A stretch of 64,000 nucleotides of DNA from Planktothricoides raciborskii GIHE-MW2 (GTDB lineage Bacteria > Cyanobacteriota > Cyanobacteriia > Cyanobacteriales > Laspinemataceae). The translations under genes were made by a program, and so were the position numbers. Where the stretch lies: the NCBI RefSeq assembly GCF_040564635.1, contig NZ_CP159837.1:99801-163800 (forward strand), in the 5' to 3' direction. The notes under the pieces are model-generated. The model saw nothing but the letters and a program-made list of their open reading frames with translations. It was not told the origin of the DNA and ran no database searches. Below are positions 777-29,844 of the stretch, in pieces (the first letter of the stretch is position 1; the number at the start of each line of letters is the position of its first letter).

Positions 777-975
777 TTGTTCTGCGATCGCCCAAAAAAT
801 CTCCTCATCTTTTCCGCAGCGAGGGGCGCTTGGACGTAGCGCCCCTACATAATCTGTTGATTTGCTTCTTTGGGCGCAATGCTTGCGCTCCTAGATAAGT
901 TATATTAATCTAAAAAATATTACCAATTTCAAAATAATCCAGAGTCGGTTTTAACCGACTTGCGCTATTAGCCGG

Positions 976-1222: not shown

Positions 1223-1242
1223 TTACCGATCTTCATTCTCTG

Positions 1243-10479: not shown

Positions 10480-10936
10480 GATTCTCCTAGAAATGGCACA
10501 TTAGCCCTTGTGAACTGAGTAAGCATTGCCAGTCAATTCCTTTATTCGAGGATAATCCGCCATTATCCGTATTCTGGTCTAGATTTAATTTTGTTGTTGG
10601 TTGTTGGTTGTTGGGTAGGGATTCTTTGTTGGTTGGGGAACGGGGAACAGTTATCGGGGAACGGGGAAAGTGAAAAGTTAAAAGTGAAAAGTGATGCATT
10701 GAAAAGTCGTAGGGGCTTTCTGGCCATATAGCCTGACGGATTATGCTTCGCAAGGACGCCCGTACAAGTGAAAAGTTAAAAGTGAAAATTCGTAGGGGCT
10801 TTCTGGCCATATAGCCTGACGGATTATGCTTCGCAAGGAAGCCCGTACAAAAGAAGTATCACTATTCACTATCTACTATTGACTATTAATTATTAACTAT
10901 TTATTATTTAATATTCGTTATTTACTATTTATTATT

Positions 10937-11139
10937 CACTATTCCCTGTTCCCTGTTCCCTGTTCCCTGTTCCCTATTCCCTGTTCCCTATTCCCTGTTC
11001 CCTATTCCCTGTTCCCTGTTCCCTGTTCCCTATTCCCTGTTCCCTATTCCCTGTTCCCTATTCCCTGTTCCCTGTTCCCTATTCCCTGTTCCCTATTCCC
11101 TGTTCCCTATTCCCTGTTCCCTGTTCCCTATTCCCTGTT
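10937..11139. repeat. Heptanucleotide array (TTCCCTG/TTCCCTA)n of about 28 copies, STRR-like
   Basis: The array is read directly. The complementary heptamer GGGAACR appears about 300 bp upstream at 10620-10650. A ~62-bp direct duplication at 10670-10860 lies between the two. Confidence 0.9.
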
Positions 11140-11240
11140 GTTAGTTGTTGTTTGGGTAGGGATTCTTTGGTTATTTGCTATTTGCTATTTTTTATGGGCG
11201 GTTGGTTATTTGCATTCACCTGGCGATCGGCAATATTTTA

Positions 11241-11311: not shown

Positions 11312-12358
11312 TTAAAATAAAGCCAGAATCGCGTTGGCCATATTTTCCAGTGTCACCACGCGATCGCTTAACCCAGCTTCCACCACCGACCGAGGCATAC
11401 CATAGACCACACAACTAGATTCTGCTTCAGTAAAAATCATGCCCCCTTGGGATTTAATCCAGGCAGCACCTTGTTTGCCATCATTACCCATTCCGGTCAT
11501 CACAATGCCCAAAACACGGTCGCGATAGACTTCAGCCGCCGATTCAAACATCACATCCACACTAGGACGATGCAAAGTATCAAAAGGACGAGTATCCAAA
11601 TGAGTCATCACCGTATTTGTCACCGGCCTGCGAATAAACGTTAAATGTCGGCCTGCGGGTGCGATCATCACCATTCCAGGTTTCAAATCTTCTCCTTCCA
11701 CCGCCTCAACCACGGTCAGCGCAGAAATGTTATTCAGTCGTTCGGCATAAAGTTTTGTATAACCCACGGGCATATGCAACACAATCGCCACTGGGACGGG
11801 CAAATTCCTAGGCAACTGGGGAATCAAATAGGTGAGGGCTTGTGGACCGCCAGTAGAAATCCCAATTGCAATTAAATCGAGGGATTTAGATGTCATTGTT
11901 TTGACAATGGGCTGCTGAACTTCTGGGAGGAACTTTTTCGCTGGCATCCCCTTGGGATGGACTTTCGCCGCCGCTTTGACTTTCTCGATCAACTCCTCAG
12001 TCAGATCAAATATCTTTTCATTAGCCAGTGCAGTAGGTTTTTGCACAAAATCAACAGCCCCCTCATTCAGAGCCGCTAAAGCCATTTCCCCCGCCTCATC
12101 AGCAATGCTAACAATCACCACCGGAATAGGAAACTTGGACATTTGCGCTTTGAGAAACTGCACCCCATCCATATTGGGCATAATTAAGTCTAATGTAATC
12201 ACATCCGGTTGGAGTTCTTCGACTTTGTTTAACGCTTCTTCTCCATCGGTTGCAGCTCCCACCACTTCAATGAACGGACTGCGTAAGAGCATTTGCTTCA
12301 CGACTTTCCGTACATAAGCTGAATCATCCACCACTAAAACTTTGACCACCCGATCCAT
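11312..12358 (-). CDS. cheB: Chemotaxis response regulator protein-glutamate methylesterase CheB
   Basis: An N-terminal receiver (VLVVDDSAYVRKVVKQML..D..MPNMDG) is joined to a C-terminal CheB methylesterase domain (GISTGGPQAL, GMIFTEAESSCVVYGMP). Confidence 0.9.
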   Translation of the reverse strand: MDRVVKVLVVDDSAYVRKVVKQMLLRSPFIEVVGAATDGEEALNKVEELQPDVITLDLIMPNMDGVQFLKAQMSKFPIPVVIVSIADEAGEMALAALNEGAVDFVQKPTALANEKIFDLTEELIEKVKAAAKVHPKGMPAKKFLPEVQQPIVKTMTSKSLDLIAIGISTGGPQALTYLIPQLPRNLPVPVAIVLHMPVGYTKLYAERLNNISALTVVEAVEGEDLKPGMVMIAPAGRHLTFIRRPVTNTVMTHLDTRPFDTLHRPSVDVMFESAAEVYRDRVLGIVMTGMGNDGKQGAAWIKSQGGMIFTEAESSCVVYGMPRSVVEAGLSDRVVTLENMANAILALF

Positions 12359-12409
12359 AAAAATTACCTATAGAAGAATATATTTTGACTCACCATTAAA
12401 AATCTATGA

Positions 12410-13258
12410 TTATACTTTTTTTTGATACACAAATGCTCCATTAATCTGCTCCAAATCAAAGTCATTCGTTAACCTTAATAAAGATTCGGAAGCACTCACA
12501 AATAAATAACCAGGCACTGGCATCATTTGAGCAAATATCTGCAAGGTTTTTTTGATGGCTTCCTGCGAAAAATAAATAAACACATTGCGGCAAAAAATAA
12601 ACGGCGCTGTGGCCATAGGACGGACATCATGTTCACTCATCAAATTCCTATTAGACCATTGGACTCGTTGATGAATTTCTGGAAGAATTTTCCAGGCGTT
12701 TTGATCCTGCTGCTGAAAATATTTTTTTTGCAAATATAAAGGGAAACTGCGAAAAGAACGTTCTCGGTATAAACCTCGTTTGGCCATTTCAATCGATCTA
12801 GCACTGCCATCACTAGCATAAATCTCGATCGGTAAACCTTGATGAAACCAACCTTTTTCATTCAAAGCCATCGCAATGGTTAACGGTTCTTCTCCCGTGG
12901 CACAGGCCGCACTCCAAATTCTTAAAGGTTCTTGATTTCCCTGGGCAAAATATTGGGGGACTAAGACATCAACCATTGATTTAATTTGATCAAACTCCCG
13001 CCAAAAAAATGTTTCTGGCACGGAAATAATATTCATCAACTGTATCCACTCCTCTTTCGCTCCAGCATCATATTTTAGCAAATAATAGTAGTCCAAAAAC
13101 GAGTCTAATCCCAAGGTGAAAATCCGAGGAGCTAATTTATCTTGTAGTATTTGGCATTGGCTTTGATCGTAATGAACTCCTGTATGTGTTTCAATTAAAT
13201 CTCGTAGTAGTTGAAAAGTTGTCCCGGACAAGTGTAAAGAGTCTGAATTAAATTCCAT
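12410..13258 (-). CDS. cheR: Chemotaxis protein methyltransferase CheR
   Basis: It has the CheR N-terminal domain, TFFWREFDQ, and the SAM-binding motif RIWSAACATGEEPLTIAMAL. Confidence 0.9.
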   Translation of the reverse strand: MEFNSDSLHLSGTTFQLLRDLIETHTGVHYDQSQCQILQDKLAPRIFTLGLDSFLDYYYLLKYDAGAKEEWIQLMNIISVPETFFWREFDQIKSMVDVLVPQYFAQGNQEPLRIWSAACATGEEPLTIAMALNEKGWFHQGLPIEIYASDGSARSIEMAKRGLYRERSFRSFPLYLQKKYFQQQDQNAWKILPEIHQRVQWSNRNLMSEHDVRPMATAPFIFCRNVFIYFSQEAIKKTLQIFAQMMPVPGYLFVSASESLLRLTNDFDLEQINGAFVYQKKV

Positions 13259-13339
13259 ATCAAACTAATCAGTCATCATAAGTGGTTGTTGTTGGCTTAA
13301 CCAGCAAGTTAGCCAAGGAGTCGGAGGGCTTTCGGCGCC

Positions 13340-13432
13340 CGCCATCGGCTTTCGGAGCTTCGGGAGCTTCGGGAGCTTCGGGAGCTTCGGGAGCTTCGGG
13401 TGCTTCGGGAGCTTCGGGAGCGAAAGCCCCTC
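13340..13432. repeat. Nonamer tandem repeat (GCTTCGGGA) x about 10
   Basis: The repeat is read directly. It generates spurious ORFs on both strands. Confidence 0.9.
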
Positions 13433-13516
13433 ATCTTCCCTGCCGACGGCGGTCTCCTCTGCCCCTGATCTCCTCTGCTCCGAAAGCCCCTGAGCCGATC
13501 GCAGGCTGATCGCAGG

Positions 13517-16516
13517 TTAATCCTGGAGCAATTTTTGGGCTGCCCGACGGACTCTGGCATTGGGATCGTTACGAGTCATCATTTGCAGTTTTTCCTCGAT
13601 ACCACGATGACCTAGGTGTGCCAGGGCTCGGATACAGGATAAGCGAACGGAGGCATCGGTATCATCCAAGGCTTGCACTAATAGTCTGGAAGCGAGAGGA
13701 TGTTTAAATCGGGTCAGCACTTCCACCAATCCCGATCGCACCATTGGATCTGGGTGAGTCAACCCTTTAGCCAGCCATTCGATTTGTTCTTCAGTGGTAG
13801 GAGCAGAACCTGATATGCTTTGATGCCGGGGTAGAGCATTGGCGGTGAGGGCGGAAATTGCCGCTTCCCGATATTGTGAATGACATAAAAGCTCAATTAA
13901 AGTGGTTGTGGCTGATGCCGATCTCAATTCACCCAGGGTTTGAATGGCCACATTCACCACTCTGGTTTCACTTTCCTCATTGAGTAATTCTTCGATCGGC
14001 TCAACCACACTCTCGTTGCCACAGGTTCCCAGCATTTCTAAGGCATCAATCCGTCTGGTAGGCAAGGGAGATTTGAGGAGATCTAACAACGGTGTTAAAG
14101 CATCAGCATGACCAATGCTTCCCAAGGCAGCGATCGCCGTCCGCGCCACATCTTCCTCACTATTTCCTGAAGTGGCGAGGGGAGCTAAGGTTTGAACCAA
14201 AGTCGCTTTAATCTGATTCTGAAGCTCTAAAGACTCGGTTTTCTGAGCGAGAGACTTACCAATTTGTCCCAGGGCTTCGATCGCCGCCGCCCGAACATGA
14301 GTAGCGGGATCATTCTGGCTTAAGCGAGACAAAGGATCTAAGGCTTGAATATCCGCGTGCCATCCCAAAGACCGCGCACTATAATATCGTACCCAGGGTT
14401 CGATATCGTTTAAAGCCTGGAGCAGATGGGGGAGGGCTGTCTCTGGGTCTATTTGACCGAAAGCGCGGGCAGCGGAGGCTCGAACATTGGGCTGTTCATT
14501 GTGGATGGCTTCGACTAATGCCGCAATCACCCGATCGCTTTCTAAATAAGGCAGATGTTCGATCGCCGCCCGACGGACGCGATTATTAGGGTCGTGACAT
14601 AACTGCAAAAGCAAATCGACACAATTTGGCCAAGCAAAGTAACCAGCAATTTTCACCGCTGATTCCCGGACTTTGGGGTTTTCATCCTGTAAGCGCTGGA
14701 AAATTTGCCCGGACATATCGGGATGACCGAGAGAATTTAAAGCGGCGATCGCTGCTTGACGGACGCCTGCGTCCCCATTACCCAACAAGGACATCAGGGC
14801 TTCAAACGACCGGCGATCGCCTATTTTGGCCAAAGCCTCAGCCGCAACAATAATTAATTCTGGATCTGTGGGCAAATGAGCCAAACGCTCCAAAATAATC
14901 CACAGCCGTCTTTGCTCTTGTTCAGCCAGGGATAATTCTAATGAGGACTCAGAGGCAAAAGTTGAATCAATAGCACTTTGGGGGGAATCAAGGGGGGGAT
15001 TGATCCGCTGACTGTCAATATCCCCCAACACAACCGTCAGGGCTGGCACGGCCAAGGGATCGCCAATTTGTCCCAAAATCACCACCGCGCAGCGACGAGT
15101 TTCTAACTGCTCGGCGGTCAGTTGTTCAATTAACAGATTGCAGACCCGCGAGCGAATGTCTTTTCCTTGTCGGCCATAGTTAACCAAGGTTTCCATCACC
15201 ATTGAGCGGACGATGGGTTCGCCCAAGAGTTGCGTTAAAGCTTGTTCCACTGCCAGACCGGAACGCCAAGTTAACAGTAGGGTGACAGCGACGAGTTCTT
15301 CCCCCTTCGCTTCCGATAAAGCAGCAATGAGATTAGATTCCCCTTGCTGCTTGATGCCACGATTAGCTAAATCGGCAATATGCTGTCCTTCCCCATAAAC
15401 TTTTTCATATCGTTCATAGAGGGTGGCAATGGCTCGAGAAATGGCGATCGTTGGGCCATCTGGACTATTCAACAACTGGGCTAAAGGCTCGACGACTTGT
15501 TTATCCCCCAGTTTTCCCAAAGCCCCAGCAGCGGGTTCGCACAGCATTTCATCTTCCAGCAGGGGGACGAGGCGATCGGCCCCTAGGGGATCGCCAATCC
15601 GCATCAAAGCTTCCAAAGCCGGAAACGCTAAAAAGAAATCCCGAGATTCGGCAATTTCCGCCAAGGTTTCCACCGCTTCCACCGCCCTTAAGTTCCCCAA
15701 AGCCTCGATCGCGTGGTAGCGGACATTGATATCCTCATCTTTTAAAACTGCAATCAGGGGGGGAATGGCGCGGGGGTCTTTTTGTTCTCCCAACAACAAA
15801 GCGGTATAAATCCGCAGATCCGGATCTTCGCTTTGGGTCAGCCAATCGATCAGCGTCGGCAAAGTATCAATATTACTCAGGGCTAAGACCTGCAAGGCAC
15901 TATTGAGCGCACTTAGATTCGTATGTTCTTCGCGCAAGATGCTCAAGATGCGATTAATGGTGGTTTCTTGCGCTTGCACCACCAAGGTATTCACGGCGGT
16001 CTGACGTACCCGCCAACTTTCATCGCCCATCGCGGATACTAAAGGATTATCCGGTAAATCAGTGCTTTGATTGGCCAAAGCTTGCGCGGCTTGCAGGCGA
16101 ATGGTTTCATCGGGATTGGCCAATTTTTCGGCCATTTCTCGTTCTAGATCCATCAGCGGGGTGACATCCTCGATACTGATAGTTGTGCCGCGAATCCGAT
16201 CGCCTTCTCGCCAGGGGGAAATCGTCACCCGCTGCTGCATTTGTTGAAAATAGGCGGATGACTTGGTGGGGACACAAGGAATTAAGGGCTGATCGAAGTG
16301 AGGGGTGTTGGTTTGAATTTCCCCTTCATCTAACACCCGTTGAAATCGGGCTAACCAGTCCCCTAAATCCATATTGGGCGCGATCACATTCAAGGGTTTG
16401 CCGCACACAGTGGTAGATGACAGCCCGGTAATCTGTTCTAACAGCGGATCCCAAGAAGTCACCGTCAGATTTCTGTCTGTTTTTAGAATATAGATTTGAG
16501 AGTTAAACGAATACAT
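13517..16516 (-). CDS. 999-aa PBS-lyase-type HEAT-repeat protein with a ~130-aa non-HEAT N-terminal domain, in an operon-like arrangement with cheR-cheB
   Basis: HEAT-like units of the E/Z type recur more than 15 times, e.g. D..VR..A..ALG.IGD..A...L..LL.D.D..VR..A. Examples are DPDLRIYTALLLGEQKDPRAIPPLIAVLKDEDINVRYHAIEALGNL and DPMVRSGLVEVL. Confidence 0.8.
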   Translation of the reverse strand: MYSFNSQIYILKTDRNLTVTSWDPLLEQITGLSSTTVCGKPLNVIAPNMDLGDWLARFQRVLDEGEIQTNTPHFDQPLIPCVPTKSSAYFQQMQQRVTISPWREGDRIRGTTISIEDVTPLMDLEREMAEKLANPDETIRLQAAQALANQSTDLPDNPLVSAMGDESWRVRQTAVNTLVVQAQETTINRILSILREEHTNLSALNSALQVLALSNIDTLPTLIDWLTQSEDPDLRIYTALLLGEQKDPRAIPPLIAVLKDEDINVRYHAIEALGNLRAVEAVETLAEIAESRDFFLAFPALEALMRIGDPLGADRLVPLLEDEMLCEPAAGALGKLGDKQVVEPLAQLLNSPDGPTIAISRAIATLYERYEKVYGEGQHIADLANRGIKQQGESNLIAALSEAKGEELVAVTLLLTWRSGLAVEQALTQLLGEPIVRSMVMETLVNYGRQGKDIRSRVCNLLIEQLTAEQLETRRCAVVILGQIGDPLAVPALTVVLGDIDSQRINPPLDSPQSAIDSTFASESSLELSLAEQEQRRLWIILERLAHLPTDPELIIVAAEALAKIGDRRSFEALMSLLGNGDAGVRQAAIAALNSLGHPDMSGQIFQRLQDENPKVRESAVKIAGYFAWPNCVDLLLQLCHDPNNRVRRAAIEHLPYLESDRVIAALVEAIHNEQPNVRASAARAFGQIDPETALPHLLQALNDIEPWVRYYSARSLGWHADIQALDPLSRLSQNDPATHVRAAAIEALGQIGKSLAQKTESLELQNQIKATLVQTLAPLATSGNSEEDVARTAIAALGSIGHADALTPLLDLLKSPLPTRRIDALEMLGTCGNESVVEPIEELLNEESETRVVNVAIQTLGELRSASATTTLIELLCHSQYREAAISALTANALPRHQSISGSAPTTEEQIEWLAKGLTHPDPMVRSGLVEVLTRFKHPLASRLLVQALDDTDASVRLSCIRALAHLGHRGIEEKLQMMTRNDPNARVRRAAQKLLQD

Positions 16517-16621
16517 AAGGCCTAAAAAATCAGAATTAAATTAATTACACTTCATTTTTTCAGATTTCTTTTCAGATTTCTTTTCAGATTTTTTCAGATT
16601 TTTATTTCTTGTTTATTTGTG

Positions 16622-16661
16622 AAACATAGAAATTTTGACCTAGGTCAAAATTTCTATGTTT
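16622..16661. promoter_or_regulatory. 40-bp perfect palindrome in the 0.9-kb intergenic region upstream of the HEAT-cheR-cheB unit
   Basis: AAACATAGAAATTTTGACCTAGGTCAAAATTTCTATGTTT is exactly self-complementary. Confidence 0.4.
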
Positions 16662-17452
16662 TATCCCATTGGGTATTTTTACCCCCATATGTTCAAAATT
16701 TTTCACAAACAACCTGAAAAAATCTAATATTTTTTGACCATTAATTTTCTAACATTAGAAAACCTTGTCTAACATTAGAAAACCTTGTCTAACATTGTCT
16801 ATTTTGATTGGGTGATGTCTTTTATATAAAAATACCAATATGGTTAAATTTTGTGATTGTTGAATCATTGGATTAAATCCATTGCTAAGGGGTGTGGGGT
16901 AATGTCTACCCCAATCATTAATTACAAAGGAGCGATGCCGCGCAGCGGATCCCGAAGCTTGCCCCCGCGAATGCGGGGGGGGAATCGCCCCTTTGCCGAA
17001 AGGTTCAGAAGCCTTAAACTTCCTCCTCAAAAGCCTAAATCGGTAATCAGCGATCGGTGGTTTCCCAGAAGAACCTAATCTGAGATTTTTCCACGATTTT
17101 TCGACTTTGCCATCCAAAAAGATCAAATCCGGTGAATGTGTGACAATAAATTATCCGGTCATCCCTGCCCACGGATCTTGCCGATTAAATATCGGTTGCT
17201 CTTGCGTTCAACCGACTGGCGGTTCTCAGGGGATGTGAGGAAAATCAAAATTATCGCTCGCTATTTCACCGGACTGAACCTGACCAATTGACTTTATTTT
17301 ATCCGATTGTGATATCCGATTGTGAGTCCTCGTGTGAGTCGTCGTGTGAGTCGTCGTGTGAGTCGTCAAACTTAGGTAAATTGCCAGGGTAAGCTCATCA
17401 AGCCTAGTCTCACCTTTGATTCCTGTCTTTGATTCCTGTCAAATATCACCAA

Positions 17453-19558
17453 TCAATCACTTAAGCGATCCATAATCATCGCCAATTGATTCGATCGTTC
17501 TAGCAAAGAAGAGGCGGCTTTTTGGGTCGTTTTCACCCCTTGAGCATTCCGTTCGGCAATGGTGGTGATTTCCTGAATCGCTTCCAGTTGGGCTGCTGCA
17601 AGCTGGGAATGATCCCGATTAGACTTGGTAATCTGACTAATCTGTTTATTCACGTTTTGGGCGGCAATGGTCATGTCCTTAATCGTGCGAGATTGTTCGG
17701 TCATCGCTTTGGACAGTTGCTCCGACTGCTGCCGCATACTTTCCACCGCTTGGGTAATTTGACCTGCGGCAACGGATTGACTACTCATGGACTTGTTCAC
17801 ATTGCCAATCATCCGAGTCAGTCGGTCTACCTCCTGAGAAATTTGTTCGCTGGCGGTGGCTTGTTCTGACAAAGCCCGGGCTGTAGTCGAAGCACTTCGG
17901 CGCATGGATTCCACTGCTTGCATAATTTGCTGCGAACCTTTCACCTGTTCCGCCGCTGCTTTACGGACTTGGGTGGTCAAGGAATTGGTATTTTGTGCCG
18001 CTTTTAAAACATCTCGAGCCGCACGAGCTTGCTCGTTCATCGCCTGGGTCACTTGCTGAGTGATTTTCCGCATTTGCAAGGTGGCGTCCACAATCGTTTG
18101 GGTGGATTTAGCTTGTTCTTTGGTGGCTTGAGCCACTTCTTTAGCTTGAATCACCGTAGTGTCGATCGCCTTTACCACATTTTGACCGGCGATCAGTTGT
18201 TCTTCTGTGGCTCGCATAATTTGTCCGACCACCTGGGTGGTTTCTTGAATCCCATTCAGAATGGTTTTTAACCCTTTAGCTCCTTCTTCCGCTTGAGTCG
18301 AACTCTGTTCTGCCACTCGTACCGCATCCGTGGACGCATTAATCGCTTCTTGAACCACCCCCTGTAACGTTTTAATAATAGAAGCAATCTCCGTAGTTGC
18401 CTGAGCCGCGCGATCTGCTAAATTACGGATTTCTTCCGCCACCACCGCGAACCCTCGTCCCGCCTCCCCAGCCCGGGCTGCTTCAATGGAGGCATTCAGG
18501 GAGAGTAAATTCGTCCGTTCAGAAATCAAATTAATCGTATCCACAATCGAACTAATTTCACTGGTGCGCTTGCCCATATCATTAATCACATCAGCAGATT
18601 GCACCATCGCATCCCGCACCCGGCCCATACCTTGAATCGCTTTTTGGATGGTTTCCCCACCATTTTGGGCATCGCGGGTGACTCTGGTGGTCAATTCCGA
18701 GGCTTGTTTCGTCAGATTATTTACACTGCGGATCGATCGCTCTAATTCTTGGGAACTCACTGCTGCGGTATTGGCTACATCGGTAATGCGTTCCGCATTT
18801 TGGGCTACCCCCTGAACCGATCGCCCCATTTCTTCCATTGACGTGGAGACATCTTGGACACTGGTGGCCAGATTTTCGATCGTCGCCGAGACTTGTTCAA
18901 TGGAAGTCCCCATTTCATTCATGGAGGCGGTAGTTTCTTCTGCGGCTGCGGTGACATCATCGGCATTTTGGGACACACTTTGAATCGAGCGGGTCATTTC
19001 CTCAATGGTCGCCGCAGTTTCATTAATGGAACTAGACAGACTATCCGTATCCCGACTCACACTTTTAATCGATGCGGCAATTTCATTCACTGAGCCACTG
19101 ACTTCATTGGCAGAAGTCGCCATGCTATCAGTATTTTCCGCCACATTTTTAATGGAAATATTGGTTTCTTGAATCGAGCTAGAGACTTGGCGGATCGCCG
19201 CCGTCAACTGTAATGAATTCCCAGAGACTTGCTCGCTGGATGCGGCCATTTCATTGATCGAGGAGACTAATTCTTCACTGGAATTAAACAAAGACTCCGC
19301 TTGTTGAGCGGTTTCTGCCAAGGTGACAGCGATCGACCGAGTTTGACTACGGGTTTCTTCCAGGGATTTCAACTGAGCCGTTGCGCCTTGTTGCACGTCC
19401 TCAGAAATCTGATAAATTTCATTAGCCGACGCCGTGACTTGATTGCCTTGATCCCGGACGCGGGCAATTTCTGCCGCTAACGCAAAATTATTGTCAGCTT
19501 GTTGAGGGGCTGCGGAAGATGAATTTCTATTATATTGGGGTTTAGGTTTGCGAGCCAT
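17453..19558 (-). CDS. Large soluble MCP (PilJ/HmpD-like) with extended repetitive coiled-coil arrays and no obvious TM segment
   Basis: It carries the MCP signature [37 protein letters not shown]. Many ~36-aa degenerate repeats (..[17 protein letters not shown]..) occur. There is no hydrophobic N-terminus. Confidence 0.8.
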
Positions 19559-19575
19559 AAGATAATTCTCCTAAG

Positions 19576-19655
19576 TTTGATTTCAATTACAGATCCAATT
19601 ACAGATCCAATTACAGATCCAATTACAGATCCAATTACAGATCCAATTACAGATG
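19576..19655. repeat. 12-mer tandem repeat (ATCCAATTACAG) x about 7
   Basis: The repeat is read directly and lies between the MCP start and the cheW stop. Confidence 0.9.
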
Positions 19656-19689
19656 AATCACCGAGCGAGATTTCCGGAGGTTTCCGGCG

Positions 19690-20160
19690 TCAAGAGCGAA
19701 CCGTCGGCAAGTCGGTGATTTCATCTGCGATCGTTAAGAGTTGCTCCACATTCAGTAACAGAATGATTCTTTCTCCGAGACGGATAATTCCGGAAATATA
19801 TTTGCTCGAAGCGCCGATCGCGTCTGGTGGGGGTTGAATCGCATTTGTGGGAATAGAAACAAATTCTCTGGCACTATCCGCGATCGCCCCCACAGTGCGG
19901 GTGCCAGTTTGAATCACAATCAGGCGAGTCCGCAGATTATATTCAGCTTTTTTTAAGCCTAACCGAGTGCGTAAATTGATCACCGGAATCACTTGTCCCC
20001 GGGAAAATACCACCCCCTCTACAAAATTTGGCGCATTGGGCACCGGAGTAATCGTTTCAATCATTTCCATTTGCTGGACTAACTTGGCCTGAATCGCATA
20101 ATTTGTCTGAGCAATTTCAAACAAAATAAAAGGCTCTGATGATTGCTGATCTAAATTCAT
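19690..20160 (-). CDS. cheW: CheW coupling protein
   Basis: It is a 156-aa single CheW-like domain (FVEGVVFSRGQVIPVINLRTRLGL). Confidence 0.85.
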   Translation of the reverse strand: MNLDQQSSEPFILFEIAQTNYAIQAKLVQQMEMIETITPVPNAPNFVEGVVFSRGQVIPVINLRTRLGLKKAEYNLRTRLIVIQTGTRTVGAIADSAREFVSIPTNAIQPPPDAIGASSKYISGIIRLGERIILLLNVEQLLTIADEITDLPTVRS

Positions 20161-20364
20161 AATTTATCAGTTATTAAATCTCTCTAGATTTACTAAATGT
20201 GTACTCACACCGGATATTTTTGCTGAATTAATTCTAGGATTGCCTGAAACAGTGAAAATATTCAGTATGGAATCCCTAGTATCCTTAATCTCCCGAATAT
20301 GCCTAGTATTCCTAGTATCCCTGGGGAATATCCCTGGGGAAATATTAGGTTTCCCTAGGAAAAC

Positions 20365-22776
20365 TTAGGTTTGGCTCCATTTTTCACTATCTTTACTTAA
20401 TCTAATTAAGGCCGACACATCCAGAATTAACACCACCCGACCATCCCCTAATTCTGTGGCTCCGGCTAAACCGGGAACTTGAATTAAGGGATCGCTCAGA
20501 GGTTGAACCACGATTTCCCGGCGACCAATAATCCGATCCACAATAATGCCGACAGTATTTAAATCTTTGCCAATAATCACCGCATGGAAACGATCTTGAT
20601 CTATTTGACTTAAGCCAAACAGGTGAGCTAACCGTCGGAGAGGCAAAACATCTTGGCGAAAAGAAAGCAGTTCGGTATAGCGATGCTGGACTTCCGAGAG
20701 TCCTTGATTTCCGCCTAAGCCGGCATTACAAGCAGCATTATGCTCCCAATTGTCCAGGGTGGTAATCTTGTGGGATTCCACTTCAATCACTTCCCGCACG
20801 GAAGACTCCGGCACGGCAAAAGTTTGCCCCCCTACGGAAACAATCAAGGCATCGGCGATCGCCAAGGTTAAAGGCAGTTCAATAGTAAACTTGGTTCCGC
20901 GTCCTGGGGCGGTGGTCAACGACAAAACCCCGCCTAGTTCCTGCACCGTATTTTTGACCACTGCCAAGCCCACCCCTCGACCGCTGGTCAGATCCGCCTG
21001 CTCTTTCGTGGAAAAGCCCGATAAACATAAAATATCCAATAAAGATATCAGGTCAACCTGGGTCTCAGAATCGAGTACGCTCATCTTTCTAGCCCTTTCT
21101 GTCACCTGGTTAACATCCACCCCGCGTCCATCATCTTCAATTTCCAGGATTACCATTTCCCCGGAAGTGGCCGCTCGCAGGGCTAAATTCCCCTGAGCCG
21201 GTTTTCCCGATTGTAATCGGTCTGATTCCGATTCCAGCCCATGACTAATGGCATTGCGGACAATATGTAACAGCGGATCCATCAATCGTTCGACGACATA
21301 CTTATCAATTTCTGTCTCCTCTCCCTTAATCTCCAGGTAAACTTTCTTGTGAGTCTCTCTGGCCACATCTCGCACCACAAACTGCATCCGCGAAAAGATT
21401 TGACCAATCGGCACTAAGCGCACTCGCATCACGCCCTGGCGCAAATCTCGCAATTGTCGCTCTAAAGTTTGGCTGGTTTCGCGAATGGGGCGTAAATGCT
21501 TCGTAGGGACGGTATTGCCCAGGCGAACTAATTGATCTTCCAGGCGAGCTCGACTAATCACCAGTTCTCCCAGCATCCGCATCAGATCGTCAAGTCGGGC
21601 TAAGTCCACCCGCACCACATTGGATGGCATCACGGAGACTCCGGGCGATCGCTTAGAAGGCGTCCCTTCCGGTCGGGGCGTCGGCACTGCTTCGGTAACT
21701 TCTTCTTCCCCGACTTCGGGAGATGTGACTGGCGTTTCTTCGGTAGGTTTTCCGGTCGGTTCTAGGGGTTTTGCTTGCTGAGTCATTGGTGCCTGAGTCA
21801 TCGGTGGGGGAGCCTGGGTTTCTGCCTCGGTGGTGACCGATTCTGTCGCCTCGGCGGGGGCGATCGCTTCCGGCTCAGGAGGGTAAAAGCGACGATAGCC
21901 GATCCCATCCTGTTCTGGATGGGGAAACAAGTTTTCATCGGCGCTGGTGGTAGCGACCACAAAATCAAACAGAGTTTTCCCCCCTGGCGCCAGCCGAGGC
22001 GAGGCATGAATTAAGTCGCCAATTTCTTGCAACCGACTGCGAATATAGTTGACATTAATCCCCCGTTCGGCTCGCTCGCGATCAGGGAAAAACTCAATAT
22101 GCCACGCTTGAGCGCCTTTTGTAATCGCCGTTTGTAACCGTTGCAACTCCTCTGGTTTTAATTGAACCGGGGACTCCTCTGGGGCGGGCGGCGGGGATGC
22201 AGGGGGGCTTGCCGTCGGCAGAGGAGCACAGGGGCCTGCCGACGGCAGAGGGGAAATATCTCCTCCGGCTCTCCCGCTCCCTTCCCCGCTCCCCCGCTCC
22301 TGGGCGACCAGGGGTGAATCGCCCCTAAAGCCGTTCCTGGGCAACTGGGCGGCAATTTGTCCCATGATGGCGCTGATATTTGGGGGCTCGGTTTTGGTGC
22401 GACGAGCGGCGATCGTCTCTTCTAACACTTTCACCCCAGCAATCACCGCTTCCATCGCTGACCGAGAAAGACTAACTTGTTCCTCTCGTAAAGCCCGAAG
22501 ACAACTCTCTAGTTGGTGAGCCAAGGCTTCAGCCTCTTTGATGCCCACCATCCCGGACAAACCTTTAAGAGTATGAAAACTCCGCAATAGTTCATCCACT
22601 AAAGACTTCATCTCTAGTTTTATTTCTGAAGTTAATTGTTCATTAATGATGTGATCCAGCAACGATTCTAAGGAAAGTAAATTACTCCGAATACTCGTGA
22701 GGTGGGTGTCACTTTCAGCAAAGTAATCGTCTAAGAATTCATCAAAAAATGGAGATTGTCCTTCATTCTCAGACAT
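20365..22776 (-). CDS. cheA: Chemotaxis histidine kinase CheA (P1-P5, no receiver)
   Basis: The domains are Hpt (SFHTLKGLSGMVG), a Pro-rich linker, a dimerization domain, an HATPase (HIVRNAISHG...GRGVGLAVVKN) and a C-terminal CheW-like domain. Confidence 0.9.
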   Translation of the reverse strand: MSENEGQSPFFDEFLDDYFAESDTHLTSIRSNLLSLESLLDHIINEQLTSEIKLEMKSLVDELLRSFHTLKGLSGMVGIKEAEALAHQLESCLRALREEQVSLSRSAMEAVIAGVKVLEETIAARRTKTEPPNISAIMGQIAAQLPRNGFRGDSPLVAQERGSGEGSGRAGGDISPLPSAGPCAPLPTASPPASPPPAPEESPVQLKPEELQRLQTAITKGAQAWHIEFFPDRERAERGINVNYIRSRLQEIGDLIHASPRLAPGGKTLFDFVVATTSADENLFPHPEQDGIGYRRFYPPEPEAIAPAEATESVTTEAETQAPPPMTQAPMTQQAKPLEPTGKPTEETPVTSPEVGEEEVTEAVPTPRPEGTPSKRSPGVSVMPSNVVRVDLARLDDLMRMLGELVISRARLEDQLVRLGNTVPTKHLRPIRETSQTLERQLRDLRQGVMRVRLVPIGQIFSRMQFVVRDVARETHKKVYLEIKGEETEIDKYVVERLMDPLLHIVRNAISHGLESESDRLQSGKPAQGNLALRAATSGEMVILEIEDDGRGVDVNQVTERARKMSVLDSETQVDLISLLDILCLSGFSTKEQADLTSGRGVGLAVVKNTVQELGGVLSLTTAPGRGTKFTIELPLTLAIADALIVSVGGQTFAVPESSVREVIEVESHKITTLDNWEHNAACNAGLGGNQGLSEVQHRYTELLSFRQDVLPLRRLAHLFGLSQIDQDRFHAVIIGKDLNTVGIIVDRIIGRREIVVQPLSDPLIQVPGLAGATELGDGRVVLILDVSALIRLSKDSEKWSQT

Positions 22777-22777
22777 C

Positions 22778-23155
22778 TTATCCCTCTTGATAATTCAACA
22801 AAACGTTGGCTTGTGCCGATAGCACTTGCGGTTCAAATGGTTTAGTGATATATCTTGAAGCTCCAGCCGCTAAAGCGGCGACACAACTGGCGTCGTCGTT
22901 GCGGGTTGTTAAAACAATTACCGGGATTTCTCGGTAGCTTTCGTGGTTCCGCACAAATTTAAGGACTTCTAAACCATGCATATCCGGCATATTTAAGTCT
23001 AATACCATTAAATCAACCGGACCAAAGACTAAACGCTCGATCGCTTCCAGGCCACTGCTGGCTTCATCGAACTTAACATTTTCTATTTTTTCTAAGGATT
23101 TTTTGACCATCCGTCGCATGGTAGAAGAATCATCAATTACCAAAATCTTTTTCAT
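22778..23155 (-). CDS. cheY: CheY-like single-domain response regulator
   Basis: MKKILVIDDSSTMRR..DLMVLDLNMPDMHG..ITKPF. The ORF track starts at 23224, but the conserved domain begins at MKKIL. Its stop overlaps the cheA start. Confidence 0.8.
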   Translation of the reverse strand: MKKILVIDDSSTMRRMVKKSLEKIENVKFDEASSGLEAIERLVFGPVDLMVLDLNMPDMHGLEVLKFVRNHESYREIPVIVLTTRNDDASCVAALAAGASRYITKPFEPQVLSAQANVLLNYQEG

Positions 23156-23276
23156 ACAATTTACCTCTAAGGTTGTACAAATAAAATCAAGCTTTATGGG
23201 ACTAAGTTTGGATGGAGTTATCAATGTTACTCCAATTTTAGGTGGCTGGGTTGATGAGTTCCCTGGGCTTGTTTGG

Positions 23277-24346
23277 TTATACCATGTCCTGAAAATCTTG
23301 GACTACGAAGTTTAACTCTTTAGTTGTATTTTTGGCTTGGGAAATGCCGATCGCAATCTGTGCCGCCAAGCGGTTAATTTCGTTCATCGCTAAAACAATC
23401 TGTTGCAGGGCAGTTTGCTGCTGTTTGGCGCTCATAGAGATTTGCTGATTACTCAGGGCTACTTCATTAATCGCTGACACAATTTTGTTCACCGTTTGGT
23501 TCGCTTGTTCCGTGACGGTGACGGAAGACTCCATCGACCGTTGGATCTGGCCGACGATCTCGCGAATTTTTTTAGCAGATTGTTTACTTTGCTCCGCCAA
23601 TTTGCGAATTTCCGCCGCCACGACCGCAAACCCCTTCCCATGATCTCCGGCTCTGGCTGCTTCCACAGCCGCATTCAGGGATAGCATATTAGTCTGACTG
23701 GCAATGTCCCCGACCAAATCAGAAATATTGGCAATCTGATTGCTCTGTTCGCTCAAGCGCAAAATTTGCTGAGAAATCCCATTCATAATTTGTTTGAGAG
23801 TTGGGTCTTGAGCAACCAGGAATTCTGGGTATTGCTCCACCAGTGCCAAAACTTCTCGCACTCGGTTAGCAGCAATTTCTGCTTGTTTGGTGGTTTGTTG
23901 AGAAGAGACATTTAACTGCTCAATAGTCACCGTGGTTTTATTCACCGAATTGGATTGACCCACGGTGGTGCGTTCTTGTTGTTCTACGGTAGTGGCAATC
24001 TGACTCGCTGAGGCCGCAATGATATTCATTGACTCGGTAATTCTGCCAGAAATCCGAGCGTGTTAGCCATGTACTGAGTCCGATCGCTACGATCCCAAAG
24101 ATAAAAGTACCGCCAACGATGATCCAACGCAACTGAGCGATCGCTCTTGAAGCCGTCATCTCTTGCACCGATTGAATTTGATCCGCTTGAAAAATCAAGG
24201 GATCTAGGGCATTGGTGAGTTGGTTGGACTGGGTAAACGTTGTATTGTAAAACATGAGCCACCAGATTACTTTTTGGCATTTTTGGATTAGCTTCGGAAG
24301 TCTCTTGGGTCAACTGTTGTGTAGTTTGCTGAATAATTTCACCCAA
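23277..24346 (-). pseudogene. Small MCP with an intact 250-aa signalling domain but a frameshifted N-terminal/TM region
   Basis: ORF 23277-24029 has [33 protein letters not shown]. The upstream TM segment (WIIVGGTFIFGIVAIGLSTW) and N-terminus lie in two other frames. A stop at about 24064 ends the signalling-domain frame. Confidence 0.5.
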
Positions 24347-24404
24347 CTGTTTCTGATTAGAGAGCGGTGTAGCGAATTTTTAACGGAGATGATCGCGAAA
24401 TCGT

Positions 24405-25649
24405 TTAGCCTTCTTGATTCACTACTAATTCATGCTCTGTAATCATTTTATTAAAATCAATCAATCCAAGGATTTTGTCTCGGTAGGGAGCCGTTCCCCG
24501 TAGATATTCATTATTGCCGGAATGTCCAGAAGTCGGTGCGGCCTTAATCTCATATGGCTGGAGGTAAATCACATCACAGACTTCATCAATCGTAATTCCC
24601 GCCACAATATCTTTCAGATGCACAACCATCGCTTTGGCTACGTCATTCACGCCGTCCCCAGAGAGGTTTAAAAACTGGCGAATATCTACTAAGGTGACAA
24701 TTTCACCTCGCAGGTTCATATTACCCAGAATAAAATCTGCACAACAAGGAACTGGAGTGATTTGTCGGATCTCCGTAAACTCCCGGACTAAGTTGAGATC
24801 CAAGCCAAAGTATTCTCCATTTAACATCACCACGGCTAAAGACATTAAACCAGCAATATCTTGGCGATCGCTGGCTAAAATTAAATTAGCCGCCCGCTCC
24901 CGAAAAATCGCTCGTTCTTCCAGAGTGGCTTCGGGACAAAAATACTCATAACCATCAACCCGAGGATCGCCGCGATCGGGCAACTCGGTGCTTTTGTCCC
25001 GGGAAGCCCCTGACATTGTTTCAGCCCCAGGTATTGCTTTGGGGGCTTCGCGAAGCGCCCCGAAGCGATACTTTTTTTGGGGGTCCGAGGTTCCAGCAAT
25101 AGGAGTCATCTCTGCTTCTGGGTCAAATCGATCCACCAACTCTGGATCTTCAGAACCACTTTGCCTCAGAGAAGGATTCTTTTTGCCTGGAAAGGGAATC
25201 AGGGGATTCACCACTTCAGAATACTCGATCAGATTTTGAGGATTGAGTAAGGTGACAATATCCGTATTGAGTTTGGCAAAACCCGCGACAAAATGGTGTG
25301 CTTCCGTGGTAATTTTGCGTCCGTAAGAAATTTGCGTCTGGATCAGGGCTGTTTCAATTTCTTTCACTTCTTCAACGGCGTTAACAATTATGCCCACACT
25401 GAAGCCTTGCCACTGGATCACAATCACGCTATCCGTAATCTGGTATTCCATCGAGCGATGGCCAAACCGCAACGCCAAATCCATCACGGGCAAAATATTT
25501 CCCCGCAAATTCAATACACCCACAATATCCCGTGGAGCCTCTTCAACCGGAGTCAACTCTGGCAAGAAGAAAATTTCTTGCACCACAGATGTTTCCAAAC
25601 CATAACGATGTTGATTAAGTTTAAAGATTAAATAAGATTTATGTTCCAT
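24405..25649 (-). CDS. Tandem-CheW-domain protein (CheW-CheW)
   Basis: Two CheW-like domains are present: residues 1-150 (VGVLNLRGNILPVMDL) and about 250-400 (ILGNMNLRGEIVTLVDI). Confidence 0.8.
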   Translation of the reverse strand: MEHKSYLIFKLNQHRYGLETSVVQEIFFLPELTPVEEAPRDIVGVLNLRGNILPVMDLALRFGHRSMEYQITDSVIVIQWQGFSVGIIVNAVEEVKEIETALIQTQISYGRKITTEAHHFVAGFAKLNTDIVTLLNPQNLIEYSEVVNPLIPFPGKKNPSLRQSGSEDPELVDRFDPEAEMTPIAGTSDPQKKYRFGALREAPKAIPGAETMSGASRDKSTELPDRGDPRVDGYEYFCPEATLEERAIFRERAANLILASDRQDIAGLMSLAVVMLNGEYFGLDLNLVREFTEIRQITPVPCCADFILGNMNLRGEIVTLVDIRQFLNLSGDGVNDVAKAMVVHLKDIVAGITIDEVCDVIYLQPYEIKAAPTSGHSGNNEYLRGTAPYRDKILGLIDFNKMITEHELVVNQEG

Positions 25650-26020
25650 TGTAACAATTCTGAGTCATTGATTAAACCGGCTTGTAAAAGCTTCTGTTTA
25701 AATATATCATTATTGGAGGTATTTGAAAGCCAGTTATAGTAAAAATTCAGGGGGCGGAAGTTGGCCTGAATTATCCCCCAGTCAAGCCGGTTTTTCTCAA
25801 GACAAATTTGCCCAAAAATTTAACAAAAATTTAACAAAAATTTAACACTTAATCCAAGTATAATCGGCGGGTATATCAAGGATGTAATGGGCGTAAAAAC
25901 CCTAGTTATTCCTCGCCTCTGCCCCCAGCTTAGGGGGCTTTCCCCGATTTTTACCGGACTGAGAGCCTCCTCTCAGCCCAAAGCATCACAAAGCATCAGA
26001 CCATTAGCCGCGAAAAAACC

Positions 26021-27796
26021 TTAATCTACTAATAGTTTTTTCATATACTTTAATAAATCTTCGACTTTGATTTGATCATCTTCCCGGCCAATCCAGGTAT
26101 TAATCGGCATTTTTTCTAACAAAAAAATTACATTAATTCTCATTTTCTTGGCTCTAGTAAAATCCCCTTCTTTTTCGTAAAGTTCTGCAATTTGCAAATA
26201 AGCATCAATTGAAGAAGGAAATAAATAGATAATTTTTCTTAAAATAGACTTAGCCGTATCCACATCTCCTTTTTCTTCCGCGATGCCTGCCATCAGATAA
26301 TAAGGTTCAATCCAGTTATAGTTTAGTTTAATTGCCTGATGACAATATTTTTCGGCTTCTAGATAGTTCCCTAAATTGGCAAAAGTTTTCGCCAGCAGAT
26401 AATAAGCTTCACAATTGTTCGGATCTACACTAATTATTTTTTTGGCGATTTTAATGACTTCAGAATATTGATGGGTTTTAAACAGTAAATTGAGTTCTTC
26501 CAGTTTGACATCCACGGATGTTTCCGCTGACGAGAGGCTGACCTCTGATTCTAAAGCCCCTAATTCCAAGGGTTCCGCAATGGGCGGCACGATACTCAAG
26601 GATAAAGAATCGTGAGGGCTGCCCGAAGCAATTGGCGTCATATTTGCATCCAGCTTGGGATTGATTAAATGATGTTTCAACCGAGAGTTGTGGGCTTTCG
26701 GGTGATGGGTGGGATGTAAGTAAGATGAAGATAACGAGTTAGAAAAATCAGCCGATCGCCCATTAGGGAGATCCACTGCGATCTGACCTTTGTGTGGCAG
26801 TTGTAGTTCTCCGGTATGTCCCGGATGGGTGTCTACAAAGTCTGACACTAAGGGTCGTTGATAAACCACCGATTCCGGAAAAACTTTCGTCGAAAACCCA
26901 TCAAGTTGCTGACCATAAAGTTCTGCATGGGCAGTGAACAAATAGCCCCCCGGTCTTAAGGTCTGATAAAATTTTCTCAGCACATGGGCGATCGCCTCCG
27001 CTTCAAAATAGACAAAAACATTGCGGCAGACAATCAAATCTATATTAGCGATATCGGCGCTAAAATCTGGGAAATTATCCTTGACTAAATTACCATATTC
27101 AAACTTGACTAACTGCTTAATTGAATCTTTGATTTGCCAGCCACTTTTTCCCGGAATAAAATAAGAATTTTTTTTCTGCTCATCCACGGTGCGAAATGAC
27201 CAAGAACCATATAGTCCTTTTTTGGCTTTTTTGATCGAATCGCTATTAATATCCGTGCCTACAATATGCAGATGCCAAAATTGCCAATCGGGAATTATTT
27301 CTGTGAGTAAAATCGCCAAAGAATAAGGTTCTTCACCCGTTGAGCAGCCCGCACTCCAGATTCGCAAGGTAGGCCGATCTTTTCCCTGTTGCTGCCAGAC
27401 TTTTCTTTGCTCGGCAATTAATTCGGGCAAAATGATATTCTTTAACAATAAAAATTGACCAGAATCTCTAAAAAAATAACTTTCTCCAGTGGTCAACAGT
27501 TGCAGCAGTTCTTTCCATTCCTTTTGACCGCCCATTTCTGATGATAGCCCATTATCACCATTGTCCATCGCCGGTTTCAAAGGATAAGAAAAAGGAGAAG
27601 AAAGCTGTAATTGGATTCGATTTTGGTAAGTATCTTTGCTTAAAAGCTGATAATACTCTTCTAAAGAAGATAATTTTAAGGCGTTGACACGCACCAAAAG
27701 CTTTCTCTGTAAAGTGTGCCAATCTTGGGGGCGAATGAATAACCCCGTATTATGGGCAATGATTTTAACAAAATGCTCGATTAAAAATTGATTCAT
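26021..27796 (-). CDS. CheR-type methyltransferase fused to a C-terminal TPR domain (FrzF/WspC-like)
   Basis: The N-terminal half is a CheR domain (FFRDSGQF, RIWSAGCSTGEEPYSLAILL, VCRNVFVYF). The C-terminal ~200 aa are TPR repeats (AYYLLAKTFANLGNYLEAEKYCHQAIKLN...). Confidence 0.8.
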   Translation of the reverse strand: MNQFLIEHFVKIIAHNTGLFIRPQDWHTLQRKLLVRVNALKLSSLEEYYQLLSKDTYQNRIQLQLSSPFSYPLKPAMDNGDNGLSSEMGGQKEWKELLQLLTTGESYFFRDSGQFLLLKNIILPELIAEQRKVWQQQGKDRPTLRIWSAGCSTGEEPYSLAILLTEIIPDWQFWHLHIVGTDINSDSIKKAKKGLYGSWSFRTVDEQKKNSYFIPGKSGWQIKDSIKQLVKFEYGNLVKDNFPDFSADIANIDLIVCRNVFVYFEAEAIAHVLRKFYQTLRPGGYLFTAHAELYGQQLDGFSTKVFPESVVYQRPLVSDFVDTHPGHTGELQLPHKGQIAVDLPNGRSADFSNSLSSSYLHPTHHPKAHNSRLKHHLINPKLDANMTPIASGSPHDSLSLSIVPPIAEPLELGALESEVSLSSAETSVDVKLEELNLLFKTHQYSEVIKIAKKIISVDPNNCEAYYLLAKTFANLGNYLEAEKYCHQAIKLNYNWIEPYYLMAGIAEEKGDVDTAKSILRKIIYLFPSSIDAYLQIAELYEKEGDFTRAKKMRINVIFLLEKMPINTWIGREDDQIKVEDLLKYMKKLLVD

Positions 27797-27965: not shown

Positions 27966-28183
27966 CTAAAAACCAAGAGTTAGGTATTCTATCAGAGGCA
28001 ACATAGCGGCCATAATCTAGGATACTCAAACGACACCGCGCATCAGCCCTCTGAGGTTCGCACACCCCTTTGAGGTCTAATTGGCCTAATTATTTAGGCA
28101 CTGCCTTGAGATCCTACCAAGGATTGCATTCAATGTTTCTCATTCCCGATCGCACTCTTTGACTATTTATAACAAAAAATGGC

Positions 28184-28357
28184 GATGTTTTAGCCAAGAT
28201 GTTTTAGCCAAGATGTCTTAGCCAAGATGTCTTAGCCAAGATGTCTTAGCCAAGATGTCTTAGCCAAGATGTCTTAGCCAAGATGTCTTAGCCAAGATGT
28301 CTTAGCCAAGATGTTTTAGCCAAGATGTTTTAGCCAAGATGTTTTAGCCAAGATGTT
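28184..28357. repeat. 13-mer tandem repeat (GCCAAGATGTYTTA) x about 13, abutting or overlapping the truncated 3' end of tnpB
   Basis: The repeat is read directly. Confidence 0.9.
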
Positions 28358-29720: not shown

Positions 29721-29844
29721 ATCGCCTCTGCCCTGATGGTGTTCTTATGGCTTGAATCTTGCCGTCTCTTTCCCATCTTCTTAGGGTATGTAAGCATACA
29801 CCAAAGTATTGAGAGGTTTCACTTGGTGATGTATATTTCGGCAT
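29257..29844 (-). CDS. tnpA: IS607-type serine-recombinase transposase TnpA
   Basis: It has an N-terminal HTH plus a resolvase-domain catalytic Ser context YARVSS. Confidence 0.8.
   Translation of the reverse strand: MPKYTSPSETSQYFGVCLHTLRRWERDGKIQAIRTPSGQRRYDIASYTGISNERTQRAIIAYARVSSRGQKADLDRQAAKLLELYPNAELVTDIASGLNFKRKGLRAILERVRQGDVGFIVVAHRDRLVRFGFDLISWLCELDGTKILVLNQDSLSPERELVEDILAIVHIFSRQLYRLTKYKSAIKEDPDLSQS

Follow-up and report, generated by a model that had tools for sequence, protein, structure and literature searches.

Two chemosensory systems, one probably nested in the other, at a single locus of the cyanobacterium Planktothricoides raciborskii

Why should one chemosensory locus of a cyanobacterium encode both a methyltransferase carrying TPR repeats (CheR-TPR) and a classical CheR/CheB pair? 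The question is raised by a 64,000-nucleotide stretch of the Planktothricoides raciborskii GIHE-MW2 genome (contig NZ_CP159837.1, positions 99,801 to 163,800; hereafter the window, numbered from its first base), the genes of which were delimited from a listing of open reading frames (ORFs) and Pfam scans. A first-pass annotation of this DNA, made from the sequence alone, had described a composite chemosensory locus and singled out the coexistence of the two kinds of methyltransferase as unusual. The locus is composite, in that two gene sets are present, and both kinds of methyltransferase are there, but the oddity dissolves if, as seems probable, the locus consists of two chemosensory systems, one nested in the other, because each system then has a methyltransferase of its own. 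System A is a seven-gene cassette at positions 11312-23155, and System B is the native Oscillatoriales chemosensory gene set around it.

The cassette lies entirely on the minus strand. A CheY of 125 amino acids (aa) (22778-23155), a single-domain response regulator (Pfam Response_reg) with an ATG start that agrees with its orthologues, is followed by an 803-aa CheA (20365-22776) with Hpt, dimerisation, HATPase and CheW-like domains (Pfam) and no receiver (REC) domain, a 156-aa CheW (19690-20160; Pfam CheW) and a 701-aa methyl-accepting chemotaxis protein (MCP; 17453-19558) that matches Pfam MCPsignal and has no transmembrane (TM), HAMP or sensor domain. Beyond an intergenic gap of 936 nucleotides (nt) (16517-17452), where short tandem repeats occur but no gene is conserved, come a 999-aa protein (13517-16516) with a PAS domain at about residues 6-127 and then some 20 HEAT/HEAT_PBS repeats (Pfam HEAT_2, HEAT, HEAT_PBS), a 282-aa classical CheR (12410-13258) without TPR repeats (Pfam), and a 348-aa CheB (11312-12358) with REC and methylesterase domains that scores above the NF001965 cut-off. 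Where checked, functional residues are intact: CheY has D8, D9, D53 and K105, CheA has Hpt His68 in an HTLKG motif, and CheB has its GISTGG serine motif and receiver aspartates. Save for a small MCP considered below, the genes listed by the first-pass annotation were borne out at their coordinates by ORFs and Pfam, and domain searches, which it had named as a possible source of refutation, gave Che domains for the listed genes; its 0.9-kb gap and its large MCP without TM segments (no hydrophobic segment in 701 aa) were likewise recovered.

These seven genes, in the order cheY-cheA-cheW-mcp-(PAS)HEAT-cheR-cheB, are a single, self-contained and conserved cassette. Species-representative genomes were scanned with the cassette CheA and the locus proteins then mapped by tblastn, and metagenomes were searched with the conserved N-terminal part of the HEAT protein as seed. 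The latter search gave 129 relatives, from which 80 loci (L036-L115) were kept, neighbours being counted only where the contig leaves room for the gene. On this count an MCP gene stands immediately upstream of the HEAT gene in 55 of 55 metagenome loci, preceded by CheW in 51 of 51, and CheR stands downstream of the HEAT gene in all 53; the cassette includes CheA (33/33), CheY (30/31) and CheB (40/42). No separate CheW-CheW or CheR-TPR gene occurs at the 80 metagenome loci, where what these two queries hit is the CheW and the CheR of the cassette itself. Among the genome loci, the full order holds as far as the contig reaches in L001, L003 and L006; in L002 and L014, which are Oscillatoria loci, it is the same but for a missing CheB. 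By host, the order is found in a related Oscillatoriales metagenome-assembled genome (MAG) at 74-99% identity, in Oscillatoria sp. PCC 10802 and its relatives, which lack CheB, and in a Syntrophobacteraceae MAG at 41-65%. Matches are looser in Nitrospirota MAGs and in a Verrucomicrobiota MAG with no HEAT gene between MCP and CheR. The HEAT-cheR-cheB genes, previously set apart as a separate unit, are hence the 3' half of the cassette.

The closest relatives of the cassette CheA in the genome scan belong to cassettes of Oscillatoriales, Syntrophobacteraceae, Verrucomicrobiota and Nitrospirota, and the cassette CheY is 99% identical to that of L001 and shares 61-70% identity with CheYs from cassettes of other phyla. 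Identity to non-cyanobacterial cassettes is mostly 53-70% for CheY, 49-67% for CheW and 57-71% for CheB, and amounts to about 50-58% for the MCP, 38-48% for the HEAT protein and 34-52% for CheA; Oscillatoria and close-relative loci score higher than these for MCP and HEAT. An exhaustive HMMER search with residues 1-220 of the HEAT protein found 273 clusters (50% identity) at E <= 1e-10, mostly proteins of about 880-940 aa that match at their N-terminus, together with a few long proteins that match in the HEAT repeats only. The window cassette departs in composition from some of its relatives: the Oscillatoria cassettes have two CheYs and no CheB, against one CheY and a CheB here, and several cassettes outside the Planktothricoides clade carry an extra REC protein and a CheC/CheX phosphatase, neither of which is found in the window. 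In L003 (12987-14097) and L014 (20505-21529), the additional single-domain REC and CheC/CheX-type phosphatase follow cheB or cheR. Within Planktothricoides the cassette is maintained, its ORFs being intact in 10 assemblies, the exceptions being L027, in which CheA is split, and contig ends.

The cheY stop codon is a single base away from the start of cheA, a spacing that suggests that the two genes are translationally coupled. Non-cyanobacterial cassettes have some 50-100 nt separating mcp from the HEAT gene; the gap of 936 nt in the window is not conserved with L001. A gene or RNA within it was considered and rejected, since the 123-aa ORF at 16755-17126 has no family match, Rfam matches nothing there or anywhere else in the window, and the gap is not conserved. 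Short tandem repeats occur in this spacer at 16560-16640 and 17320-17370, and 14-nt units are repeated in long tandem arrays immediately downstream of cheB (10831-11166) and upstream of CheR-TPR (28156-28393); such repeat-rich spacers are absent from non-cyanobacterial cassettes.

What kind of system the cassette represents can be read from a comparison with the Che7 cluster of Myxococcus xanthus. The published components of the latter (PMC3945109) are CheY7 (MXAN_6965, 125 aa), CheA7 (MXAN_6964, 683 aa, no REC), CheW7 (MXAN_6963, 148 aa), Mcp7 (MXAN_6962, 821 aa, cytoplasmic and lacking TM and HAMP, with its signalling domain at 317-534), CheR7 (MXAN_6960, 273 aa) and CheB7 (MXAN_6959, 348 aa), MXAN_6961 being unlisted in the tables. 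The window cassette, with products of 125, 803, 156, 701, 999, 282 and 348 aa, shares this gene order and very similar protein sizes. Both clusters combine a CheA without receiver with a separate single-domain CheY, a cytoplasmic MCP that lacks TM and HAMP and has its signalling domain in mid-protein, a classical CheR and a REC-CheB, and both have a gene between mcp and cheR, which in the window encodes HEAT/PBS-lyase-type repeats. A HEAT-repeat protein, Cpc7, is the reported binding partner of CheY7 (Darnell 2014, cited in PMC11514114 and PMC9040617). The window differs in its cyanobacterial host, in the repeat-rich 0.9 kb that separate mcp from the HEAT gene, in having no desaturase gene next to the cassette, and in the N-terminal PAS domain of its HEAT protein, a feature not found described for Cpc7. 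We take Cpc7 to be the product of MXAN_6961, and by analogy the PAS-HEAT protein is the presumed partner of the cassette CheY. By these likenesses the window cassette would be of Che7 type, an arrangement of known parts and not a new kind of system. The HEAT-linked Che7 cassette, so far studied only in Myxococcus, would then be a widespread and almost invariant seven-gene unit that occurs in filamentous cyanobacteria too; no paper describing HEAT-linked che clusters in cyanobacteria was found.

The two most distinctive cassette proteins are the soluble MCP and the PAS-HEAT protein. The best MCPsignal stretch of the MCP covers residues 288-466 of 701, and residues 217-503 align without gaps, over 287 residues, to positions 8-294 of the 44H protein TM1143 of T. 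maritima (2CH7), which points to a 44H-type core. An AlphaFold2 model built with 16 homologues (mean predicted local distance difference test score, pLDDT, 62) is entirely helical, with four long helices, a hairpin turn at 363-366 and symmetric breaks near 174-180 and 549-557, and the C-terminal arm carries A..EQ motifs with 28-residue periodicity. The earlier description of this protein as PilJ-like was abandoned, its closest relatives all sitting in Che7-type cassettes. In the HEAT protein, the PAS domain is assigned from NCBIfam and Pfam: TIGR00229 matches residues 6-127 with 27.4 bits against a cut-off of 22.9, and PAS_4 is found in six of seven orthologues (Pfam). The motifs MQQRVTI and EDVT at the N-terminus are invariant across the aligned phyla, and a single-sequence AlphaFold prediction of this N-terminus was unusable (pLDDT 42). 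The HEAT repeats resemble NblB, CpcE and CpcF, all below the family cut-offs. A conserved N-terminal PAS domain in the HEAT protein bears on how a poorly understood class of chemosensory systems senses or acts. Apparent MCP-HEAT fusions in the protein database (P0003, P0006 and P0096) were considered as evidence of physical linkage and rejected as frameshift artefacts, the linker of P0003 being out of frame and the source assemblies L018 and L019 containing many split genes; P0057, which also looks like a fusion, may be another such artefact. A 685-aa protein present on five contigs (P0052; ncbi, jgi, lgn, ena) is an apparent MCP-CheR fusion akin to the MCP and CheR of the cassette and, unlike the MCP-HEAT "fusions", may be genuine.

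The remaining chemosensory genes appear to constitute a separate, native Oscillatoriales system. On the minus strand these are a 591-aa CheR-TPR (26021-27796; Pfam), a 414-aa CheW-CheW protein with two CheW stretches (24405-25649; Pfam), a decayed first transmembrane MCP (23277-24346) and two further transmembrane MCPs (6881-8671 and 4700-6583), and on the plus strand an MCP (35045-36472), which in all relatives immediately precedes the gene of the hybrid kinase, and that kinase itself, a 1012-aa CheA-REC (36743-39781) with two Hpt domains (His48 and His238). The DNA of the latter two (36744-36975 and 37314-37545) is 83% identical, pointing to a recent duplication within the gene. The CheW-CheW and CheA-REC of the window are 100% identical to proteins listed by NCBI under Planktothricoides. 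Filamentous cyanobacteria commonly have homologues of both, and in Laspinema, Crinalium and other cyanobacteria without the cassette CheR-TPR invariably comes with CheW-CheW. Laspinema sp. A4 has an SLT gene, a 439-aa REC-containing regulator, CheR-TPR, CheW-CheW and three MCPs; Crinalium has CheR-TPR, CheW-CheW and then MCPs; and Phormidium sp. CCY1219 has five MCPs, CheA-REC and then REC-CheB, on a 20-kb contig that apparently also carries a CheW-CheW homologue (P0155). None of the three includes the cassette, in Crinalium as far as the locus reaches. CheB follows CheA-REC in other genera and is absent from that position in the Planktothricoides clade.

It is in this clade alone that the cassette is found inside another chemosensory cluster. 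L001 and L030 have, in order, SLT, a 422-aa response regulator (in L001 with REC and a weak DUF4388/PATAN match), CheR-TPR, CheW-CheW, an intact MCP and then the cassette, and L033 continues on one strand with HEAT-CheR-CheB, an orthologue of the 470-aa protein encoded at 9067-10479, three MCPs, CheA-REC and a PMT_2 gene. L036 has the order of L033 from CheA to the orthologue of MCP 6881-8671, where the locus ends, and the CheA-REC homologue P0249 apparently comes from the same 27,381-base contig. The CheA-REC that the first-pass annotation had taken for a second kinase outside the cluster is therefore colinear with it in close relatives, and belongs with CheR-TPR and CheW-CheW. These arrangements suggest that, in an ancestor of the Planktothricoides clade, the cassette entered System B behind its first MCP.

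The window itself departs from this colinear order. The SLT gene of L001 matches positions 3-782 on the plus strand and its cluster matches in reverse, and a block of 27.6 kb (3787-31359) is bracketed by 2.9-kb inverted repeats (904-3787 and 31359-34096) with arms 95-97% identical. Each arm carries a TPR-CHAT gene, intact on the left (1243-3564) and split on the right into ORFs 31504-32265 and 32611-33543. When the inversion is undone, the order becomes exactly that of L033. The block is inverted in this genome relative to its close relatives, and it is this inversion that places the last MCP and the kinase of System B on the strand opposite to CheR-TPR and CheW-CheW. That the orientation is instead an artefact of assembly across the repeats, the true genome being colinear, is decidedly improbable: the length and similarity of the arms would be compatible with it, and all short-read assemblies break at the repeat and do not probe the orientation there, but the protein cluster includes a 7.2-Mb contig, which implies long-read assembly, and the TPR-CHAT copies fall precisely at the two breakpoints, L001, L030 and L033 having none at these junctions, a layout that is expected of a real repeat-mediated rearrangement. 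The layout of the repeats resembles the product of intramolecular replicative transposition or of repeat-mediated recombination, and the segment they flank could be reversibly invertible. The inverted repeats sit exactly at the inversion breakpoints, with a third CHAT fragment at 4100-4417. Tandem repeats of 107 and 143 nt (33458-34428 and 975-1188) mark the outer edges of the arms, those at 33458-34428 falling in the interval from the CHAT gene to the MCP at 35045.

Two components of System B have decayed. The small MCP at 23277-24346, formerly annotated as one gene, has a length that is not a multiple of three and runs through three reading frames; it is truncated at its 5' end, with at least two frameshifts, and lacks some 140 N-terminal residues relative to the intact, 498-aa, two-TM orthologue of L001. 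It is fragmentary in 10 of 10 independent Planktothricoides assemblies, and is therefore a genuine pseudogene, with extra frameshifts in L022, L023 and L029. Of the PATAN-type response regulator, only the last 176 or so codons are left (29961-30402, minus strand), comprising the REC part alone, frameshifted, with the N-terminal 246 codons gone. This remnant is flanked by an IS607-type insertion sequence (IS) element (28344-29844, minus strand), made up of a MerR-HTH serine recombinase (29257-29844) and a split OrfB/TnpB-like gene, and by further IS fragments (resolvase and TnpB; 30680-31122). The usual PATAN-type output of System B is hence lost in this genome.

Such decay invites the reading that the whole locus, or at least System B, is a non-signalling relic in a planktonic lineage. 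The truncated regulator and the MCP pseudogene, present as such in all assemblies, would fit it, as would the IS607-type element and fragments, the split right copy of TPR-CHAT and the additional frameshifts in the MCP remnant of some strains. Against it, CheR-TPR, CheW-CheW, three transmembrane MCPs, CheA-REC and the seven cassette genes are intact and full-length, the conserved catalytic residues are present where checked, and the proteins from CheR-TPR through the HEAT protein have equal lengths across independent assemblies. A relic is accordingly judged unlikely, although it is to be taken seriously, and a pair of nested systems, one of them partly decayed, is the preferred interpretation.

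How System B relates to known systems depends on which are used for comparison. With Wsp and Frz it shares a CheR-TPR (WspC/FrzF), two CheW domains (WspB and WspD, FrzA and FrzB) and a hybrid CheA-REC (WspE/FrzE), to which other cyanobacteria add a CheB (WspF/FrzG). It differs in its PATAN-type output regulator, in the fusion of its CheW domains in one protein and in its multiple transmembrane MCPs. The only soluble MCP of the locus belongs to System A, where it is linked to a CheA without REC, and CheA-REC is linked to transmembrane MCPs, a further difference from Frz. CheR-TPR is common to many alternative-function systems and not specific to Frz, and CheR-TPR proteins and alternative-function systems were already known in cyanobacteria (PMC3447774). 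Like the Tax and Pix systems of Synechocystis and the Hmp and Ptx systems of Nostoc, System B opens with a response regulator of PATAN type and closes with a hybrid CheA-REC that has more than one Hpt; unlike them, it has CheR-TPR (and CheB in other genera) and a fused double CheW, and lacks a separate CheY. Nothing specific links System A to these systems; it has neither a PATAN response regulator nor a hybrid CheA. The gene complement taken to define type IV pilus (Tfp)-type systems, namely PATAN-REC, CheY, CheW, MCP and hybrid CheA with no CheR/CheB, describes neither System A nor System B. In its make-up, System B is Wsp/Frz/Pil-Chp-like. The proposed resemblance of the locus to Frz and Wsp holds for CheR-TPR, the double CheW and CheA-REC, but not for the cassette, which matches Che7.

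If that resemblance extended to the whole, all genes would form one integrated Frz/Wsp-type super-system, in which both kinases, three CheW domains, both methyltransferases, all MCPs and the single CheB work together in a mixed array. The clade has kept the two gene sets physically nested (L001, L030, L033 and L036), System B lacks the CheB that trails CheA-REC in other genera, and one native MCP (6881-8671) fits the 44H register as the cassette MCP does, both aligning gap-free to the 44H reference, so that mixed arrays are sterically conceivable. Yet each gene set is complete and found alone elsewhere, and the native MCPs, which are 34-51% identical to each other, show only 28-40% identity to the cassette MCP, and over shorter stretches, as would be expected if they form two receptor families. 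The regulator and first MCP of System B are pseudogenes while the cassette genes are intact, which argues for independent selection, and the scanned ORFs of the window provide no output of FrzZ or WspR type: no FrzZ-like double-REC protein was found among them, and neither they nor the neighbourhoods of the cluster in L030-L034 include a GGDEF domain such as a WspR-like REC-GGDEF would carry. An integrated super-system is for these reasons improbable.

A narrower possibility is that the nesting is functional, the cassette now providing the native transmembrane receptors with adaptation, with output or with both. The chance of this is slim, and it is left as a possibility because the receptors share the 44H register, the CheB of System B is lost and its regulator is dead. 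If it were true, environmental signals would be routed through CheY to a PAS-HEAT protein with repeats of phycobilisome-lyase/NblB type, which could act on phycobiliproteins or on the pilus machinery; as a variant, a reversibly invertible 27.6-kb block could switch the wiring between the two systems.

Two separate systems, the reading favoured here, suggest the following scheme. In System A, the soluble, sensor-less MCP would form cytoplasmic signalling complexes with CheW and CheA, and CheA would phosphorylate the single-domain CheY. Phosphorylated CheY may then bind the PAS-HEAT solenoid, as output or as scaffold, by analogy with CheY7 and Cpc7, and the CheR and CheB of the cassette would adapt the soluble MCP through its many EE/EQ sites. 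In System B, sensing would proceed through the transmembrane MCPs and signalling through CheA-REC. The history of the locus would have begun with insertion of the cassette, followed by the 27.6-kb inversion, the loss of the PATAN regulator beside IS607-type remnants and the decay of the first MCP. The cassette is of a known type in an unusual, nested and rearranged setting, with no new type of system involved, and the nested, part-decayed layout amounts to a natural experiment in which one chemosensory system has been inserted into another.

Several points weigh against this interpretation. The likeness to Che7 is drawn from published gene order, sizes and domain tables and not from sequence alignment, and the MCP core of the window fits 44H, whereas Mcp7 is reported as 40H (PMC3945109). 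The 936-nt gap and other spacers of 120-370 nt are compatible with more than one operon structure, and scans for promoters and terminators in the window gave counts near the shuffled expectation, that is, at the level of noise. The third-codon-position GC content (GC3) of the cassette genes (0.34-0.50) overlaps that of their neighbours (0.27-0.57) and gives no foreign signal, so that base composition was rejected as a sign of horizontal transfer. The PAS-HEAT protein may deliver the output, sense on behalf of the sensor-less MCP, or do both. Lastly, there may be functional cross-talk between Systems A and B, because their receptors share the 44H register and only one CheB is present.

The other genes of the window can be described more briefly. 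The first-pass annotation had placed a degenerate MCP-like sensor and two Cache MCPs downstream of the cassette. The 596-aa MCP at 6881-8671 is 44H-like, with MCPsignal as the only domain seen, and a Cache-type sensor is found only in the 627-aa MCP at 4700-6583 (HK_sensor_dom_bact, with dCache_1 below the cut-off). The conserved 470-aa protein at 9067-10479 (minus strand) does have two TM segments and an MCP-like topology, but no recognisable signalling domain and no family match in Pfam or NCBIfam; its similarity to MCP cytoplasmic domains is faint, if colinear (18-20% identity), and its orthologues occupy the same position in L033 and L036 with 59-61% identity. A PilC-like T2SSF platform gene (46975-48096) lies about 7 kb from the hybrid kinase and may be relevant to a pilus-related role for System B. 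Within the PMT_2 glycosyltransferase ORF (39835-41805), positions 40443-40637 hold about ten copies of the 15-nt repeat CCCAGAAATAAATTC, which would translate into a repeated pentapeptide; the array could differ in length from one strain to another. Farther along, an ORF of 2566 aa (52674-60374) has four Laminin_G_3 (concanavalin-like lectin) domains, and tandem repeats of 63 nt are present at 63139-63453 inside a DUF2330 gene.

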